A stretch of 9,346 nt of DNA from a virus. Taxonomy: Duplodnaviria; Heunggongvirae; Uroviricota; Caudoviricetes. The DNA is taken from IMG/VR virus record IMGVR_UViG_2778261360_000018; one strand, 5' to 3'. Below, in pieces: positions 2,796 through 8,472 of this stretch. The stretch's first letter is position 1. The number at the start of each line of letters is the position of its first letter. The position numbers and the translations under genes are program-made. A model generated the notes under the pieces. That model did no database searches, was not told the DNA's origin, and saw only the letters and a list, made by a program, of their open reading frames with translations.

Positions 2796-3677
2796 TTACA
2801 TAGATGTTTCGTTTAATTCTTCCCGGCGAACGCTGTAAACGTCGGTGGCTTTTGCCAGCAGTTCGTCATCATCTGAAAGTTTTTGTGCAATGTATTTGTA
2901 AGCCTTATCTAGTTCGGAGACAGTGCTGTAATTCATCGCTGCGCTGGTAAAGGCCATCAGCATTTCTTCTGGATCACGGCTATCCGCTTTACGCGTTTGC
3001 TCATCAGGCTTTTTCACTGTTTTAGCGTTGATCAGACTGTTCATTCCCGCAGCAGTGGTCGTTTGCGGAGTAATGTCTCGCTCAACGCGCGGTGCCGTTT
3101 CCTGTAATTCGTCTGGTGTGTAAACACCGAGAAGTACATCAGGAGCGTGCAGGCGAGCCCATCGTTTCGTGCAAAGATAGGCAAGCTGCTGGCGCGGATC
3201 CTGTTCCCACAATGGAGAGTTACGCACTCCGGCTTGCGCCATACTGATGGTAAGCTCACGTGGTTCTGCTTCTCCTTTAAGAACTGCTGACACAGTTACC
3301 GTCAGATTAGGTGATTTATCTGTTTTGCCGTTAACATTCGACCAGTCACCGCTCCAGCGATAATTCAGGCGTGTCGCCAGCAGGCTGGAAGAGGATACGA
3401 CCGCGTTTACCAACTGTGCTTCGTAGCCTAACGTTCCGTTTACCACATGCGTTTTCTGCGCCACGGCGAACGGGTTCATTCCCCACTGTGCCGCCTGCAT
3501 GGTCACCGCCAGGCAATCGGCAGGTTTGCCTTCAAGATGTTTCGGTACAGTTGCTTTGCTTTGTGACATCAACTCCGCGAAACGCACCAGTTGATTCATG
3601 CCCTCGGGGCTGAAGATTGCCGCAGCAGTGCCTACAGTTGCGCCTGGTTGTGATGTGATTGCGATATCATTGCTCAT
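2796..3677 (-). CDS. Single-strand annealing recombinase, RecT/Red-beta (Bet) family
   Basis: 293 aa. By recall of lambda Bet, shares short motifs: ERDITPQ (lambda ERDITPV), GMNPF (lambda GLNPW), WEQDPRQQL (lambda WQSHPKRML). Start overlaps the upstream exonuclease stop (ATGA at 3674-3677). Confidence 0.7.
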   Translation of the reverse strand: MSNDIAITSQPGATVGTAAAIFSPEGMNQLVRFAELMSQSKATVPKHLEGKPADCLAVTMQAAQWGMNPFAVAQKTHVVNGTLGYEAQLVNAVVSSSSLLATRLNYRWSGDWSNVNGKTDKSPNLTVTVSAVLKGEAEPRELTISMAQAGVRNSPLWEQDPRQQLAYLCTKRWARLHAPDVLLGVYTPDELQETAPRVERDITPQTTTAAGMNSLINAKTVKKPDEQTRKADSRDPEEMLMAFTSAAMNYSTVSELDKAYKYIAQKLSDDDELLAKATDVYSVRREELNETSM

Positions 3678-4495: not shown

Positions 4496-4791
4496 GCCGC
4501 GTCCCTCTGCCCATCAAGCTGATCAGCCAGATCCCAGCGGGCGATAATTGCCATTGCCTCTCGCCGGTAGGCATCCATCAGTTCTTCGAACTCAGGGCTG
4601 TCTTTAGCAGCCTCCAGTACTTCCTGACGAACGCCTTTGCCTGTTACAACGTCGAAAGTTGAGGCCAGTTGATGAAGCCGGATACTCTCAATCAGTTCAA
4701 CTTGTCGGTCATATAGCTGTTCTGACAGGCGGTAGTCCTTGTCGAATGCCAGCATGATTTTTTGAAGATTTTTCTGCTGATTAACGTTCAT
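4492..4791 (-). CDS. Hypothetical acidic protein (99 aa), early-left operon
   Basis: ATG at 4791 preceded by GGGAGGG; the track's longer 4806 start lacks this. MNVNQQKNLQKIM...PEFEELMDAYRREAM. No Arg-rich N-like motif. Faint resemblance to the lambda Gam C-terminus is speculative. Confidence 0.6.
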   Translation of the reverse strand: MNVNQQKNLQKIMLAFDKDYRLSEQLYDRQVELIESIRLHQLASTFDVVTGKGVRQEVLEAAKDSPEFEELMDAYRREAMAIIARWDLADQLDGQRDAA

Positions 4792-4793
4792 TA

Positions 4794-4946
4794 TCAGCCC
4801 TCCCATATCTCGTTATCGTTGGCCACATCGCGAGCTTCTTTGCTGACGAAAGCCCACTTAATGCCTTCCTGTAAGGTGCGGAACTTCCAGCTCATGAATC
4901 CGCATGCAGTAACGCAGTACCAACCGTTGATGATTTTCCACTGCAT
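4794..4946 (-). CDS. Hypothetical small protein (50 aa), first ORF after the pL-like promoter
   Basis: Below the 60-aa track cutoff; found by hand. ATG at 4946-4944 with GAGGT Shine-Dalgarno 8 nt upstream, stop TGA at 4796-4794. Translation MQWKIINGWYCVTACGFMSWKFRTLQEGIKWAFVSKEARDVANDNEIWEG has an aromatic/hydrophobic N-terminal half. Confidence 0.35.
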   Translation of the reverse strand: MQWKIINGWYCVTACGFMSWKFRTLQEGIKWAFVSKEARDVANDNEIWEG

Positions 4947-4952
4947 AACTTG

Positions 4953-5043
4953 TTACCTCGGTTTGTTACCGTTGAGGTAATAATTATGCGTATTTGGTTT
5001 GATGTCAATAGATATGAGTTAAAAAAATTACCCGTTAGGTAAT
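4953..5043 (-). promoter_or_regulatory. pL/OL-like leftward early promoter with two operator palindromes
   Basis: Minus-strand perfect -35 TTGACA (plus 5003-5008) with an AT-rich -10 candidate near 4980-4988. Palindromes gTTACC-gttga-GGTAAT (4965-4981, over -10/+1) and ATTACC-cgtta-GGTAAT (5027-5043, upstream of -35). Longer 7-bp arms TTACCTC/GAGGTAA at 4953-4959 and 4974-4980. Confidence 0.5.
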
Positions 5044-5050
5044 CGAATAG

Positions 5051-5079
5051 GCAATAAAAAAGCCGCCAGAAGGCGGCTT
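5051..5079 (-). terminator. Intrinsic terminator downstream of the repressor gene
   Basis: Stem AAGCCGCC / GGCGGCTT (5060-5067 / 5072-5079) with loop agaa; on the minus strand it is followed by TTTTATTGC (plus 5051-5059). Lies between the repressor stop (5100) and the pL-like promoter. Confidence 0.6.
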
Positions 5080-5099
5080 ACTTACTGAAAAATATGATT

Positions 5100-5684
5100 T
5101 TATTGTTTGTTTTTTTCGTTCTGGTTGATGACAAATTCAATGTAACTTTCGATCTTTGCCTTCTCTGTTTCAGGTAACAATGCGTAGCGCGAGCGATCAT
5201 AGTTGATGGTCGCAGGGTCGTGCGGGTGAATCAGTAATTCATAGCCGTGACGCCCGAATGCGGATGCAACATTCTCCAGGGTGGAAATGGAAACGCTGAC
5301 CTCATTGTTTAACAGGCGGCTGATTGTCACCTGGGCGACGCCGGATGCGCGGTGTAGTTTTCCCTGCGTTGAAAGGTCGCGGCTTTCGCTCATCCAGCGT
5401 TCCAGGTTGTGAGCCGCCAGCTGTCCAATGTCGCTTGGGCCGACAGGCTGAAAACCTTCCTGAGAAAGCGAGCGATCGATATCAAGCCAGTTACGGGGTT
5501 TATTGGCGGCAGCTTCAATTTTTCGCGCAACCTGGTCGCCGATAACCTTCTTGCCAAGAGCCCAGCGGTTTACCAGATTTGCCTGAGTTCCAAGTTTTTC
5601 TGCCATCCGCGTCTGAACACCATTGAATTCACGGTCGATCAAGTCGTTGAGATTTTGCCTGCGGACGTCCTGAATACTTTTCAT
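5100..5684 (-). CDS. Prophage immunity repressor, CI-like by position; two XRE-type HTH domains, no S24 peptidase domain
   Basis: 194 aa. HTH 1 about residues 20-65 (VQTRMAEKLGTQANLVNRWALGKKVIGDQVARKIEAA); HTH 2 about residues 105-150 (LSTQGKLHRASGVAQVTISRLLNNEVSVSISTLENVASAFG). No LexA/CI-type autocleavage module. Divergent from the cro-like gene across an operator-rich region; poor Shine-Dalgarno, as for lambda cI from PRM. Confidence 0.75.
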   Translation of the reverse strand: MKSIQDVRRQNLNDLIDREFNGVQTRMAEKLGTQANLVNRWALGKKVIGDQVARKIEAAANKPRNWLDIDRSLSQEGFQPVGPSDIGQLAAHNLERWMSESRDLSTQGKLHRASGVAQVTISRLLNNEVSVSISTLENVASAFGRHGYELLIHPHDPATINYDRSRYALLPETEKAKIESYIEFVINQNEKNKQ

Positions 5685-5738
5685 TTTCTGGAAAATCGCC
5701 TCATATATGAATCAGTAGATGATTCAATTTAAAGCAAT

Positions 5739-5813
5739 ATTACCCAACGGGTAAATGCACCCCATAGGTAACTATCCTTGATTTTTGTTACCTTATGGGT
5801 GAATATTTATTAT
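5739..5813. promoter_or_regulatory. OR-like divergent promoter/operator region between the repressor and cro-like gene
   Basis: Three related palindromes: ATTACC-caacg-GGTAAA (5739-5755), gcACC-ccata-GGTAAc (5757-5772), TTACC-ttatg-GGTgA (5788-5802). Candidate rightward promoter -35 TTGTTA (5785-5790), 17-nt spacer, -10 TATTAT (5808-5813). Confidence 0.5.
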
Positions 5814-5838
5814 CTGAAATAAATATCAGGCAATAGCT

Positions 5839-6069
5839 ATGAGCGATAACGGACATTTCGATTTCAAAAAGCACTGGCTTGCACTTACTCCGGATGAGCG
5901 TGAAGCCTTCGCACAGGAAGCCGGAACGACGAGTCACTATATCCAGACTCACTTAACAGGTAAGCGCAAAATGCCAGGTAAGGTATTGATGAATGGGCTT
6001 TTTAAAGCCTGTAAAACAAGACAATGGCTGCGCTCAAAAGCAGAACTGGCATACTTCTTCTACTCATGA
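5839..6069 (+). CDS. Cro/CII-like small HTH regulator, first gene of the rightward operon
   Basis: 76 aa. LTPDEREAFAQEAGTTSHYIQTHLTGKR is HTH-like. Sits where cro sits in lambda. Weak Shine-Dalgarno CAGG 8 nt upstream. Confidence 0.55.
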   Translation: MSDNGHFDFKKHWLALTPDEREAFAQEAGTTSHYIQTHLTGKRKMPGKVLMNGLFKACKTRQWLRSKAELAYFFYS

Positions 6070-6090
6070 TATCCAGCCACAACCCTCTGT

Positions 6091-6114
6091 AGACCGCCAT
6101 CCGGCGGTCTTTTC
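6091..6114 (+). terminator. tR1-like intrinsic terminator candidate after the cro-like gene
   Basis: Stem AGACCGCC / GGCGGTCT (6091-6098 / 6103-6110), loop atcc, followed by TTTC. The U-tract is short, so termination may be partial. Confidence 0.45.
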
Positions 6115-6219
6115 ATATCTATTCGCACCTTAAAGGTAATAAAAAACCAAATATGGTTGATCTTTTTTTTGTGTCAGCACAAAATAACCGTAATCCCAAT
6201 ACTAATAACAGGGCTTACC

Positions 6220-6420
6220 ATGGAAATCATTACACGTATTGATGCCGCAAAGCGCGGACTTAAACGCTACTACACCGGAAAAACATGTAAGCACGGACAT
6301 GACAGTGAACGCTGGGTTTACAACGGACACTGTGTTGAGTGCACCATGGAATCAAACCGTCGTATCAGGGCAGAGATTAAGCAGATCATGATTAATTCCT
6401 CCCCACAACATTCAAGCTGA
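6220..6420 (+). CDS. Small Cys/His-rich putative zinc-binding protein (66 aa), in the cII position
   Basis: MEIITRIDAAKRGLKRYYTGKTCKHGHDSERWVYNGHCVEC... with C-x-H-x-H-x9-H-C-x2-C spacing. ATG at 6220 chosen over the track's 6157 start, whose N-terminal extension is hydrophobic junk. Family not recognised. Confidence 0.5.
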   Translation: MEIITRIDAAKRGLKRYYTGKTCKHGHDSERWVYNGHCVECTMESNRRIRAEIKQIMINSSPQHSS

Positions 6421-6435
6421 TAGCGGAGATTAATC

Positions 6436-7227
6436 ATGAGCAGACATGCAACAGATTGGGCCTGGGAGACAGATCCAGGTAGCTCGTCATTAAAGCTCAT
6501 ACTGCTCTCGATGGCTGACAGAGCCGATGAATATAACCTTTGCTACCCCAGCATAGAACGCCTCGTTAAAGACACTTGCCTGAATAAAAAAACCGTGCAG
6601 GCCGGGCTTATATCGCTCATGAAAATGGGGCTTATTTCAGATACCGGAGAGAGAAAGGGAGCGACGAAAAGAGTGCGGGTTTTCTCTCTTAATATAACCA
6701 AAAACGGGAACATTAAAGGCAACCGGGAAGGGGGTAATGAACCCGAAAACGGTAATGTTACCGAAAACGGGAATATACCCAAAAACGGGGTGTTGAATGA
6801 TCCCAAAAACGGGATCCAGAACCAGTCATATAACCAGTCATTTAACCAAGAGAGGGAGAGCAGGACAAAAAGCGGGGATTCTGTGCCTCATGACCCCGGC
6901 GCAAACAACGCCGTGATGAATAACTTTGTTTCTCCTGGTGGGCCAGGGCAATTAGGCAAATTTGTCATGCATGAACAATGGCAGCCATCAGATGACTTTC
7001 TTCGGAAAAGCTCATTGCAGGGGATCTACCTGGACAGTCTGCCAACGGCACAGGAACTTGCAGAGTTCAGAATTTACTGGATGGCTGAGGGTAAGGCATA
7101 CCATCAGGCACAGTGGGAGCAGAAGCTGGCAAGGCGGCTGCAGATTAGCAGACAGAAGCAATCAACATTACCTGATAACAACGTTCCGCACTGGAACAGC
7201 CCTGAAGCGTGGGAGGATTTCTTGTGA
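6436..7227 (+). CDS. Replication initiator, lambda O-like (N-terminal winged-helix, low-complexity linker, C-terminal DnaT-like region)
   Basis: 263 aa. N-terminal LKLILLSMADRADEYNLCYPSIERLVKDTCLNKKTVQAGLISLMKMGLI is HTH-like; central N/G-rich linker is encoded by DNA iterons; C-terminal QWQPSDDFL...EFRIYWMAEGKAYHQAQWEQKLARRLQ. Located directly upstream of the P homolog. Confidence 0.75.
   Translation: MSRHATDWAWETDPGSSSLKLILLSMADRADEYNLCYPSIERLVKDTCLNKKTVQAGLISLMKMGLISDTGERKGATKRVRVFSLNITKNGNIKGNREGGNEPENGNVTENGNIPKNGVLNDPKNGIQNQSYNQSFNQERESRTKSGDSVPHDPGANNAVMNNFVSPGGPGQLGKFVMHEQWQPSDDFLRKSSLQGIYLDSLPTAQELAEFRIYWMAEGKAYHQAQWEQKLARRLQISRQKQSTLPDNNVPHWNSPEAWEDFL
6694..6847. repeat. Iteron array (putative replication origin) inside the O-like gene
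   Basis: Five direct repeats with core AAAACGG(G) starting at 6701, 6746, 6764, 6782 and 6806, with 18-bp periodicity for the central three; then a tandem CCAGTCAT(A/T)TAACC x2 at 6822-6847. Confidence 0.6.
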
Positions 7228-8009
7228 ACAACGTTTTTACCGCGATACAAAACCGTGACGGAGAAGCCCTTTCTCGCATGTCAGGTTATGAGCATCAGTA
7301 CGTCAACAATGACAATGTGGTGAACATGTCAGCAGAGAGGCTTGTTGATGCCCTTTTCAAACAGCTGAAACAACTGTTTCCGGCGGCAGTGGTAACCAAC
7401 CTGAAGACGCCAGAGCAGGAAGTAGCTGCAAAACAGCAGTGGATTGCTGCGTTTGCCGAAGGGGGGATCCGAACCCGTGAACAGGTTTCTGCTGGTATGC
7501 GCCACGCCCGCGCCAGTGAATCTCCGTTCTGGCCGTCGCCTGGGCAATTCATCAAGTGGTGTAAAGACAGCAAGATGGTTCTTGGCGTCACCATTGACGA
7601 TGTGATGGCGGAGTTTCACCGGTACAGCAAGGAAAAAAGTTTATATCCTGGTGGTCCCGAAAGATTCCCGTGGCGGCATCCTGTTATGTACTGGGTCGTA
7701 TGTGATACCCGCCGTGCAATGTATCAGCGCCAGCTTAGCGAGATTGAGGTTGAGAAACACGCGTGCAGGCTGCTCGATGATTGGGCGAAAAAGGTGGCTT
7801 CCGGACAGCAGATACCCGATCCGGTGATCAGCATACAGGCAAAGTCAGAGCCCATGAGTACACCTCCGGACACAGGGAGAGACGTTTACCATCCACTAGG
7901 GCGAAGTTTCGGGTGCATGCCTAACGCCGCCACCCTTGGGGGAATAACACCGGCGCAGTGGCTGATGGAGGAATACAGGCGGGGAAAGGAGGCAGGATTT
8001 ATCAAGTAA
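7224..8009 (+). CDS. Replication protein P-like (replicative helicase loader)
   Basis: GGIRTREQVSAGMRHARASESPFWPSPGQFIKWCKD closely matches my recall of lambda P (NGITTMEQVNAGMRVARRQNRPFLPSPGQFVAWCRE); SLYPGG...FPW...YWVV also matches. Start assigned to GTG 7224 (GTGA overlap with the O-like stop, Shine-Dalgarno GGGAGGA at 7211-7217) rather than the track's GTG at 7209. Confidence 0.9.
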   Translation: MNNVFTAIQNRDGEALSRMSGYEHQYVNNDNVVNMSAERLVDALFKQLKQLFPAAVVTNLKTPEQEVAAKQQWIAAFAEGGIRTREQVSAGMRHARASESPFWPSPGQFIKWCKDSKMVLGVTIDDVMAEFHRYSKEKSLYPGGPERFPWRHPVMYWVVCDTRRAMYQRQLSEIEVEKHACRLLDDWAKKVASGQQIPDPVISIQAKSEPMSTPPDTGRDVYHPLGRSFGCMPNAATLGGITPAQWLMEEYRRGKEAGFIK

Positions 8010-8014
8010 TACCA

Positions 8015-8034
8015 GCGCGATAGCGCATTTTTTT
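8015..8034 (+). terminator. Weak intrinsic terminator candidate after P
   Basis: GCGC-gata-GCGC (4-bp stem) followed by A then T7 (8028-8034). The stem is short, so this is low confidence. Confidence 0.3.
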
Positions 8035-8045
8035 ACGCCTCAGCA

Positions 8046-8125
8046 ATTACCTGTTGGGTAATAAAATATTCTAAATTCTATTGATTTCGTGTCTTATGTG
8101 GTTTTTAATTACCTTAGGGGGTAAA
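8046..8125 (+). promoter_or_regulatory. Second rightward operator-flanked promoter downstream of P
   Basis: Perfect palindrome ATTACC-tgttg-GGTAAT (8046-8062) upstream of -35 TTGATT (8081-8086); 17-nt spacer; -10 TTTAAT (8104-8109) overlapped by ATTACC-ttaggg-GGTAAA (8108-8125). Same motif family as the OL and OR sites. Confidence 0.45.
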
Positions 8126-8127
8126 TC

Positions 8128-8472
8128 ATGAGAAAACAGATACAGGCTCTTGGTCGACTCAAAACAGGCCAGATGAACAAAACAGAATCTGCGTATTGCC
8201 AGCACCTTGAGCTGCGTAAACGTGCAGGAGAAATCGTCTGGTATCGATTTGAGGGTATCAAGCTGCGGTTAGCTGACAACACGTTCTATACGCCCGATTT
8301 TGCTGTGATGCTCGCCACTGGCGAGATGGAACTGCACGAAGTGAAAGGTTTCTGGACCGACGACGCCAGGGTGAAAACCAAAGTCGCCGCAGATCAGTAT
8401 CCGTTCCGAATCATCGGGGTAACGGTTAAACCAAAGAAAGCAGGTGGTGGCTGGAAAATCGAAGAGTTCTGA
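8128..8472 (+). CDS. Small PD-(D/E)XK-fold nuclease-like protein (VRR-NUC/DUF1064-like)
   Basis: 114 aa. FYTPDF ... ELHEVKG ... TDDARVK fits a D...(D/E)xK active-site arrangement. Shine-Dalgarno AGGGGG 6 nt upstream of ATG 8128. Confidence 0.55.
   Translation: MRKQIQALGRLKTGQMNKTESAYCQHLELRKRAGEIVWYRFEGIKLRLADNTFYTPDFAVMLATGEMELHEVKGFWTDDARVKTKVAADQYPFRIIGVTVKPKKAGGGWKIEEF

Follow-up and report, generated by a model that had tools for sequence, protein, structure and literature searches.

How are the replication genes of a phage transcribed when a terminator stands between them and the early rightward promoter, pR? The question is posed by the 9,346-nt Caudoviricetes sequence IMGVR_UViG_2778261360_000018 (the whole of this stretch is referred to below as the window), in which a hairpin follows the cro-like gene and precedes the genes for a replication initiator and a helicase loader. 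Sequence comparison places the 9.3-kb window, which is ~97-99% identical to phiV10 and its relatives, in a phiV10-like prophage (genus Uetakevirus, epsilon15 group), of which it covers the stretch from the integrase to the early-right region. An earlier note on this DNA held that the replication genes need read-through of the hairpin. We lean, with moderate confidence and on sequence evidence, towards a different arrangement, namely, a terminator coupled with a putative restart promoter, P2, under the control of the phage repressor Rep, instead of lambda-style antitermination. This corrects a lambda-centred reading of the region, which has a lambdoid gene order but apparently different early control. 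The elements on which the argument turns are the following (window coordinates; aa, amino acids; ORF, open reading frame):

5839-6069, + strand: cro-like gene, 76 aa, homologue of phiV10 gp41 (from the ORF list; phrog_35 'transcriptional repressor', E 5.6e-13)
6091-6118, + strand: intrinsic terminator (stem-loop 6091-6110, U-tract UUUCAUAU 6111-6118)
6125-6139, no strand: Rep-operator-like site GCACC-TTAAA-GGTAA, right half perfect, left half degenerate
6145-6158, no strand: near-palindrome AACC-AAATAT-GGTT, overlapping the -35 element of P2 (the second motif, CATATGTGGTT-like)
6157-6185, + strand: proposed promoter P2 (-35 TTGATC 6157-6162, 17-nt spacer, -10 CAAAAT 6180-6185)
6185-6199, no strand: half-operator TAACC-GTAAT-CCCAA, abutting the -10, right half degenerate
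6220-6420, + strand: gp42 homologue, 66 aa, Cys/His-rich, phrog_1081 (function unknown), first gene past the terminator and P2
6436-7227, + strand: replication initiator with HTH_36 and DnaT domains (Pfam/PHROG)
7209-8009, + strand: lambda-P-like helicase loader (Pfam/PHROG)

The terminator behind the cro-like gene

As judged from its sequence, the element at 6091-6118 is a real intrinsic terminator of moderate predicted strength. The cro-like gene, which is divergent from the repressor gene with the OR operators lying between the two, is the sole gene of the pR unit upstream of it, and the hairpin begins 21 nt past the cro-like stop codon. The stem-loop (AGACCGCC-AUCC-GGCGGUCU) consists of eight pairs, six of them G-C, closing a 4-nt loop, and is followed by UUUCAUAUCU; its predicted free energy (dG) is -12.9 to -14.5 kcal/mol, and the 171-nt stretch that contains it folds better than all 200 shuffled versions (z = -4.6). 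The U-tract, UUUUCAUAU, is moderate, with five U among the first eight positions and a T-score of 2.9-3.6 versus 4.4 for the post-rep terminator. Similarly, a d'Aubenton-Carafa-type score, used for ranking only, is +7 to +17 for the hairpin versus +38 for the post-rep terminator. The actual termination efficiency at this site is inferred.

The same element is present at the same position in phiV10, between PhiV10p41 and p42, where it is annotated as 'putative rho-independent terminator' (DQ126339.2 / NC_007804.2, 33078-33100); hence, the terminator as such is already known. Only two bases differ between phiV10 and the window in this region, both in the adjacent operator-like site, and the public phiV10 record annotates no promoter or operator downstream. 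Beyond phiV10, a hairpin occupies the same place in all 168 tabulated related loci, which represent 33 hairpin types from about ten lineages, including Escherichia, Salmonella, Citrobacter, Klebsiella, Enterobacter, Kluyvera, Buttiauxella, Pseudocitrobacter and Scandinavium (one locus without the anchor motif, L101, was left out of the table). A genome-contig scan yielded 9 loci and a first viral-contig scan 80 loci, the latter with a cro-like protein identical to that of the window; the diversity among the relatives came from a second viral-contig scan with a divergent query. Across this set, the loops are variable while the stems are maintained, for instance, by replacement of G-C with A-U on both sides in Scandinavium and by a G.U pair in epsilon15. 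In the aligned stem arms, 84% of the cells are paired and three pairs are changed on both sides; the covariation score is 0.239, compared to 0.161 for shuffled alignments, 4 of 500 of which reach the former value. This covariation support is modest because the core pairs seldom vary. Altogether, the hairpin terminator that the earlier note had placed after the cro-like gene is borne out by its position, conservation, covariation and annotation in phiV10.

A predicted Rep-controlled promoter downstream of the terminator

The hairpin is separated from the next start codon by 110 nt, and within this interval sits a block that is conserved far beyond the flanking coding DNA, in which phiV10 and epsilon15 are only ~67% identical. 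The block was tallied in 98 distinct sequences from 169 loci, together with an alignment of divergent relatives. The -35 element of P2, which begins 47 nt past the hairpin, reads TTGATC in 92 of these sequences, TTGATA in five and TTGACC in one, both variants being shifts towards the consensus TTGACA. The -10 element is (C/G/A)AAAAT in 98/98, and the spacer between the two hexamers is 16, 17 or 18 nt in 98/98 while its sequence drifts. Furthermore, the P2 position is the top + strand site for a sigma-70 position weight matrix (PWM) in nine of ten divergent orthologues. The flanking operator-like sites are likewise fixed in place. The GGTAA half of the upstream site lies 16-18 nt ahead of the -35 in every one of the 98 sequences, and its left half conforms to xxACC in 96; in the window, this left half, GCACC, is identical to that of the middle OR operator (5757-5771), and the corresponding post-terminator site of phiV10 has one mismatch to the operator. 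On the other side of the promoter, T(A/T/G)ACC directly follows the -10 in 78 of the 98 sequences, and the half-operator at 6185-6199 is placed like the downstream operators of pL and P3, the other promoters of this type in the window. A conserved Rep-type site past the terminator makes most sense as a target for repression there. We predict that the block is an active sigma-70 promoter, P2, and that Rep would bind at 6125-6139.

The repressor and the regions with which the block is to be compared are as follows:

5100-5684, - strand: repressor Rep, homologue of the Rep protein of Salmonella phage SPC32H, Pfam HTH_3
4966-5042, - strand: pL region (operators 4966-4980 and 5028-5042; -35 TTGACA 5008-5003; -10 AATTAT 4985-4980)
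5740-5813, + strand: OR/pR region (operators 5740-5754, 5757-5771 and 5788-5802; -35 TTGTTA 5785-5790; -10 TATTAT 5808-5813)
8015-8034, + strand: second terminator-like element, after the P-like gene (GCGC-GAUA-GCGC, A, U7; read from the sequence)
8047-8124, + strand: P3 region (operator 8047-8061; -35 TTGATT 8081-8086; -10 TTTAAT 8104-8109; operator 8109-8124)

A common layout is discernible at pL, P2 and P3, with an operator, 17-19 nt, TTGAnn, 17 nt, a -10 element and another operator. As at P2, a terminator-like element precedes P3; this element has a weak stem (dG -5.9) and is an annotated terminator in phiV10 (35038-35057), and the epsilon15 orthologue of the upstream P3 operator is annotated as a 'repressor' binding site (35906-35922). 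The paired operators of pL (4966/5028) and P3 (8047/8109) are 62 bp apart, start to start, in the relatives examined (L002-L006), apart from 63 bp at pL in the Klebsiella phage. This spacing suggests a single Rep tetramer that spans the promoter and contacts both sites. The Rep operator, ATTACC-N5-GGTAAT with the core TTACC-N5-GGTAA, is present in the window in four exact and four near copies, all of them intergenic, and the matches with up to two mismatches number 10 versus 2.7 expected. In the complete phiV10 genome, the core with up to one mismatch occurs 14 times versus 0.58 expected. Twelve of the 14 copies lie between genes, whereas two (87-119) are inside the start of the small-terminase coding sequence (41-715). 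Apart from these sites in the first 80 nt of the small-terminase gene, the operators are located ahead of the structural, tail-fibre, lysis, oac and integrase genes, as well as at OL, OR, after the cro terminator and at P3; the late and accessory copies have the phiV10 coordinates 87-119, 3252, 20497, 20877, 24692 and 26870. Given the operators ahead of late and accessory genes, the repressor may silence the promoters of these genes directly. In the epsilon15 record, several of the orthologous operators carry a repressor-binding annotation.

Rep aligns over its full length with the SPC32H Rep structure (PDB 5D50, E 4e-42, residues 1-190 aligned) and, by this homology, possesses two helix-turn-helix (HTH) regions and a C-terminal tetramerisation domain. 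The SPC32H repressor is a tetramer on palindromic DNA and is taken apart by the tetrameric antirepressor Ant (PMC9638917), and its tetramerisation domain is of the DNA-looping type (PMC9986798). A looping-type Rep tetramer would fit the operator pairs that bracket promoters. An antirepressor gene is not contained in the window; in phiV10, gp23 has a Bro-N domain and matches anti-repressor PHROGs; in the relative ZX5, the antirepressor role has been demonstrated by overexpression, in a study that includes no mapping of terminators, operators or transcription start sites (PMC9782041). The SPC32H/epsilon15 Rep-Ant systems share with the window the same ATTACC-N5-GGTAAT operators at orthologous positions (OL, pre-resolvase and late-gene regions), whereas the post-cro site and the P2 block are unannotated in epsilon15 and its hairpin is devoid of a U-tract. 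The Rep/Ant immunity of this phage family, with its many operators, has been described, and the present finding is ordinary and largely known, with no new mechanism. What the public records do not contain is the probable restart promoter and the operator-like sites next to it, both of which are predictions from sequence. A broader parallel is found in mycobacteriophage L5, where the gp71 'stoperators', which Brown et al. reportedly described in 1997, are said to be asymmetric, to lie inside transcription units and to block elongation. As in L5, one repressor acts at many genome-wide sites instead of at one or two operators combined with an antitermination cascade; unlike those of L5, the sites in the window are palindromic, intergenic and bracket promoter-like elements.

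In the mechanism that we favour, the hairpin at 6091-6118 would end or strongly attenuate a short pR transcript that covers the cro-like gene only, and gp42, the DnaT-domain initiator and the P-like loader would be expressed mainly from their own Rep-guarded, sigma-70-type promoter, P2. The next unit would restart from P3 past the 8015-8034 terminator, so that the early-right arm would consist of units in series, each with a promoter of its own that is kept silent directly by the tetrameric, SPC32H-type repressor. Upon removal of Rep by the antirepressor, all units would fire together, in which case processive antitermination of the N/nut type is not needed. More generally, the epsilon15/phiV10 group appears to use many repressor-guarded promoters separated by terminators, with no antitermination cascade. 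A need for read-through into the replication genes is not supported, given that a block with the layout of a Rep-controlled promoter lies downstream of the hairpin in 98/98 relatives.

Other readings of the block were tried and set aside. A minus-strand pRE-like promoter (6177-6150; CTGACA, 16 nt, CATATT) was rejected since none of the divergent orthologues has it, and DnaA-box and IHF-site readings, checked by eye, were dropped because the matches are not conserved between lineages. A mosaic junction is located at 6162/6163, exactly past TTGATC and within the P2 spacer (TL-2011b, L004, 2973; also loci such as L016, L019 and L024). In phages of the TL-2011b/ZX5 type, the sequence is shared as far as 6162 and gives way there to a different gp42 and replication module, yet GTGCAAAAT is regained at the right distance. 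Within the OR region, a candidate maintenance promoter for the repressor (5755-5726, - strand; TTTACC, 18 nt, TAAATT; PWM score 8.7) overlaps the leftmost operator.

Read-through, RNA stability and antitermination as alternatives

The serious rival is a leaky terminator with passive read-through, which would feed the replication genes mainly from pR and set the cro:replication ratio, the conserved block being a set of protein-binding sites (for a Rep roadblock or looping, or for another regulator) rather than a promoter. We consider this explanation possible but doubtful. The U-tract in the window is short (UUUU, then C), and the hairpin scores well below the post-rep terminator. Moreover, the hairpin is retained in the epsilon15-, Klebsiella-, Kluyvera- and L135-type orthologues, but its tail there is poor in U and its score negative (-11 to -39), and in such phages, pR transcription must largely run through. 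Several properties of the block and of the hairpin itself also weigh against the combination of terminator and P2. The PWM was home-made from consensus frequencies and not taken from a curated model; it ranks pL first and pR second in the window, a useful check on its soundness, and P2 ninth (score 9.14) and P3 tenth. The P2 score is not significant alone, being reached by 316 of 2000 dinucleotide shuffles (16%) of 6070-6219, and we have, for this reason, downgraded the P2 claim to one based on conservation. The two P2 hexamers each match the consensus at only four of six positions, and the conserved bases overrun them (GG before TTGATC, ACC after the -10, a T-run), so that the invariant bases could belong to protein-binding sites, namely, the palindrome AACC-N6-GGTT and the operator half-site, instead of a promoter. 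Each of the two operator-like sites at P2 has one degenerate half, in contrast to the operators at pL and P3. Finally, the generic terminator pattern is not enriched across the window (9 found versus 9.8 expected), and hence the case for 6091-6118 rests on its quality as one of the two best matches, on its position after the stop codon and on conservation. What decides us for P2 nevertheless is the retention of hexamers and 16-18-nt spacing in 98/98 sequences despite spacer drift, with -35 variants only towards the consensus, and the recurrence of the same layout at pL and P3. The Buttiauxella and Scandinavium relatives have terminators with strong canonical tails (U6 and UUUUCUUUU, respectively) and retain the same downstream block; in the absence of a restart promoter, such terminators would starve the replication genes. 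The weak-terminator route that the earlier note had considered is therefore plausible as a contributor, with a U-tract that is moderate here and poor in epsilon15 and Klebsiella, but less so as the only route. Given the weak or absent U-tracts in the epsilon15 and Klebsiella relatives, passive read-through would also contribute; it probably adds to the output of P2, and the two probably coexist.

The U-poor lineages also bear on the notion that the hairpin mainly serves the cro-like message as an RNA 3'-end or stability element, or as a pause site, and is retained for that role, termination being a lineage-specific by-product. All lineages have the stem, even those without a U-tract, and the epsilon15 record, in which many terminators are annotated, has none at this position. 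We find this explanation unlikely overall. In six of the 11 scored hairpin types (phiV10/TL-2011b type, Tyrion, L133/L156, Buttiauxella, Pseudocitrobacter and Scandinavium), 4-6 consecutive U follow the stem immediately, as is characteristic of intrinsic terminators, and a 3' stabiliser requires that a 3' end be made there, hence termination or processing. A pure RNA-stability role is possible in the U-poor lineages but is unlikely in the window phage because UUUU directly follows the stem.

Regulated antitermination would invoke an unrecognised phage protein or a cis-acting RNA that modifies the RNA polymerase started at pR and thereby makes it pass over the hairpin and the terminators beyond. 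The protein candidates include two products of the leftward operon, the AlpA-family and PerC-like proteins, as well as phiV10 gp55. The genes of the window relevant here, along with those at its ends, are:

1-1251, + strand: P4-type integrase
~4946 down to 1255, - strand: leftward operon (50-aa ORF, 104-aa ORF, exonuclease, RecT, AlpA-family, PerC-like, methylase)
4794-4946, - strand: first leftward ORF, 50 aa
4492-4806, - strand: second leftward ORF, 104 aa (99 aa from the second Met)
2498-2746, leftward operon: AlpA-family protein (PF05930; phrog_66)
2089-2388, leftward operon: PerC-like protein
8128-8472: DUF1064 gene

Lambda tR1 is a Rho-dependent, N-controlled terminator. The window element resembles it in lying right after a cro-type gene and before the replication genes, within the lambdoid order of repressor, cro, O-like and P-like genes, but is an intrinsic hairpin with a U-tract and, unlike lambda, the window phage has a proposed restart promoter and neither N, an arginine-rich motif, boxA or boxB, nor the space for them. 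The earlier note had seen no N-like arginine-rich motif in the first two leftward ORFs and no boxA/boxB-like nut sites, and both observations hold. The two ORFs have no match in Pfam, and the PHROGs that they match are all of unknown function; a motif scan of all ORFs detected no arginine-rich stretch in any real ORF of the window; and boxA (CGCTCTTTA, up to one mismatch) was found 0 times in the window. The same applies at the scale of the complete genome of phiV10, in which no antiterminator of the N, Q or any other type is annotated or detectable. A canonical N/nut system was sought by sequence search and not encountered in the window, and there is no evidence for an antiterminator protein encoded elsewhere, one of the routes that the earlier note had entertained. 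The put sites of phage HK022, which are RNAs of ~65 nt with two stems that occupy untranslated stretches behind pL and pR, would likewise explain terminator bypass without an N protein, and a put-like RNA had also been suggested for the window. Unlike in HK022, the leaders predicted from the best-scoring promoters are only ~19 nt for pR and ~27 nt for pL and, with the 21-nt gap between the cro-like stop codon and the hairpin, leave no room for nut or put elements. Structure prediction for the pR transcript, a check that the earlier note had proposed, was run on 5818-6120 and showed the transcript to be not unusually structured (z = -1.4). When the whole window was scanned against Rfam with E values of up to 10 allowed, there were only sub-threshold chance matches, mainly on the post-rep terminator, although Rfam may lack a put model. 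The put-like route is thus not supported.

Two observations favour regulated antitermination: terminator-like hairpins recur along the early-right arm (at 6091-6118 and 8015-8034), and one of the proteins encoded in the window belongs to the AlpA family (PF05930). In Pseudomonas aeruginosa, AlpA has been proven to act as a DNA-loaded antiterminator with which intrinsic terminators are bypassed (PMC7969949, PMC9371919). However, 8C3T is the only PDB match of the window protein, and none of the AlpA complexes of P. aeruginosa is matched with E values of up to 1; on this account, an AlpA-type antiterminator was set aside as unlikely. The gene is located in the leftward operon, three genes from the P4-type integrase, where such proteins are usually excisionases (phrog_66). 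Given, in addition, the negative N, arginine-rich-motif, boxA and Rfam searches and the operator-flanked, promoter-like element that each post-terminator unit has of its own, such that no factor is needed, we regard regulated antitermination as highly improbable.

The second palindrome and the replication region

The near-palindrome at P2 belongs to a second motif, CATATGTGGTT, with the palindromic form AACCATATATGGTT, which follows a Rep operator in each of five intergenic regions that are orthologous between phiV10 and epsilon15: before the structural genes, before the tail-fibre/tailspike gene, before the lysis cassette, at P2 and at P3. The copies are found at 6145-6158 and 8090-8103 in the window, at 3308, 20921, 24739, 33135 and 35116 in phiV10 (L176), and at 2988, 19940, 24751, 33752 and 35953 in epsilon15 (L177); at the three late regions, TAnnAn occurs 7 nt further on. 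The count of the motif with up to two mismatches is not above chance, and the case for it consists of the copies with up to one mismatch and their orthologous positions. It may be the site of a further regulator or a late-promoter element. Conceivably, the early-right hairpins, including the U-poor versions of epsilon15 and Klebsiella, are regulated terminators that are overcome by an unrecognised mechanism of neither the N nor the put type; we deem this quite unlikely. A candidate for such a mechanism could be a factor acting via the palindrome AACC-N6-GGTT / CATATGTGGTT at P2, P3 and the three late-gene control regions. The probability that some unrecognised control mechanism is tied to this palindrome is small and, if one exists, a factor at these sites could time the early-to-late switch.

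The initiator and the P-like loader match Pfam families PF17948, PF13730 and PF06992 and PHROGs 1032 and 109. Inside the initiator gene, at 6690-6815, there are five to six direct repeats of ~18 nt (AAT..ACC.AAAACGGGA) with a spacing of 18-45 nt; these are probably origin iterons, as in lambda O, and also code for a repeated NG-rich peptide. The 66-aa gp42 homologue, for which Pfam and PDB searches yielded no match, contains a C-x3-H ... C-x2-C pattern and occupies the position of lambda cII. It is retained as the first post-terminator gene in every relative, notwithstanding the module swap. In the leftward operon, a G+C-rich inverted repeat without a U-tract (2769-2787, transcribed on the - strand; GCGGCGC-GCGTG-GCGCCGC) lies between RecT and the AlpA-family gene, and its epsilon15 orthologue is annotated as 'stem-loop; transcriptional pausing'.

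The stretch from 4700 to 8200 is 97-98% identical to phiV10, PAS61, BP9 and others, and matches to the window region were found in 561 of the 5,426 complete E. coli genomes searched. With phiV10-like prophages being this common, the practical value of the analysis lies in better annotation, including the likely replication promoter and the extra Rep sites. A cro-like protein identical to that of the window is also encoded by contig NZ_RAVW01000927.1 (L007; 408 bp, coverage 0.75), which is filed under the myxobacterium Corallococcus exercitus and almost certainly represents contamination of that assembly with an E. coli prophage.

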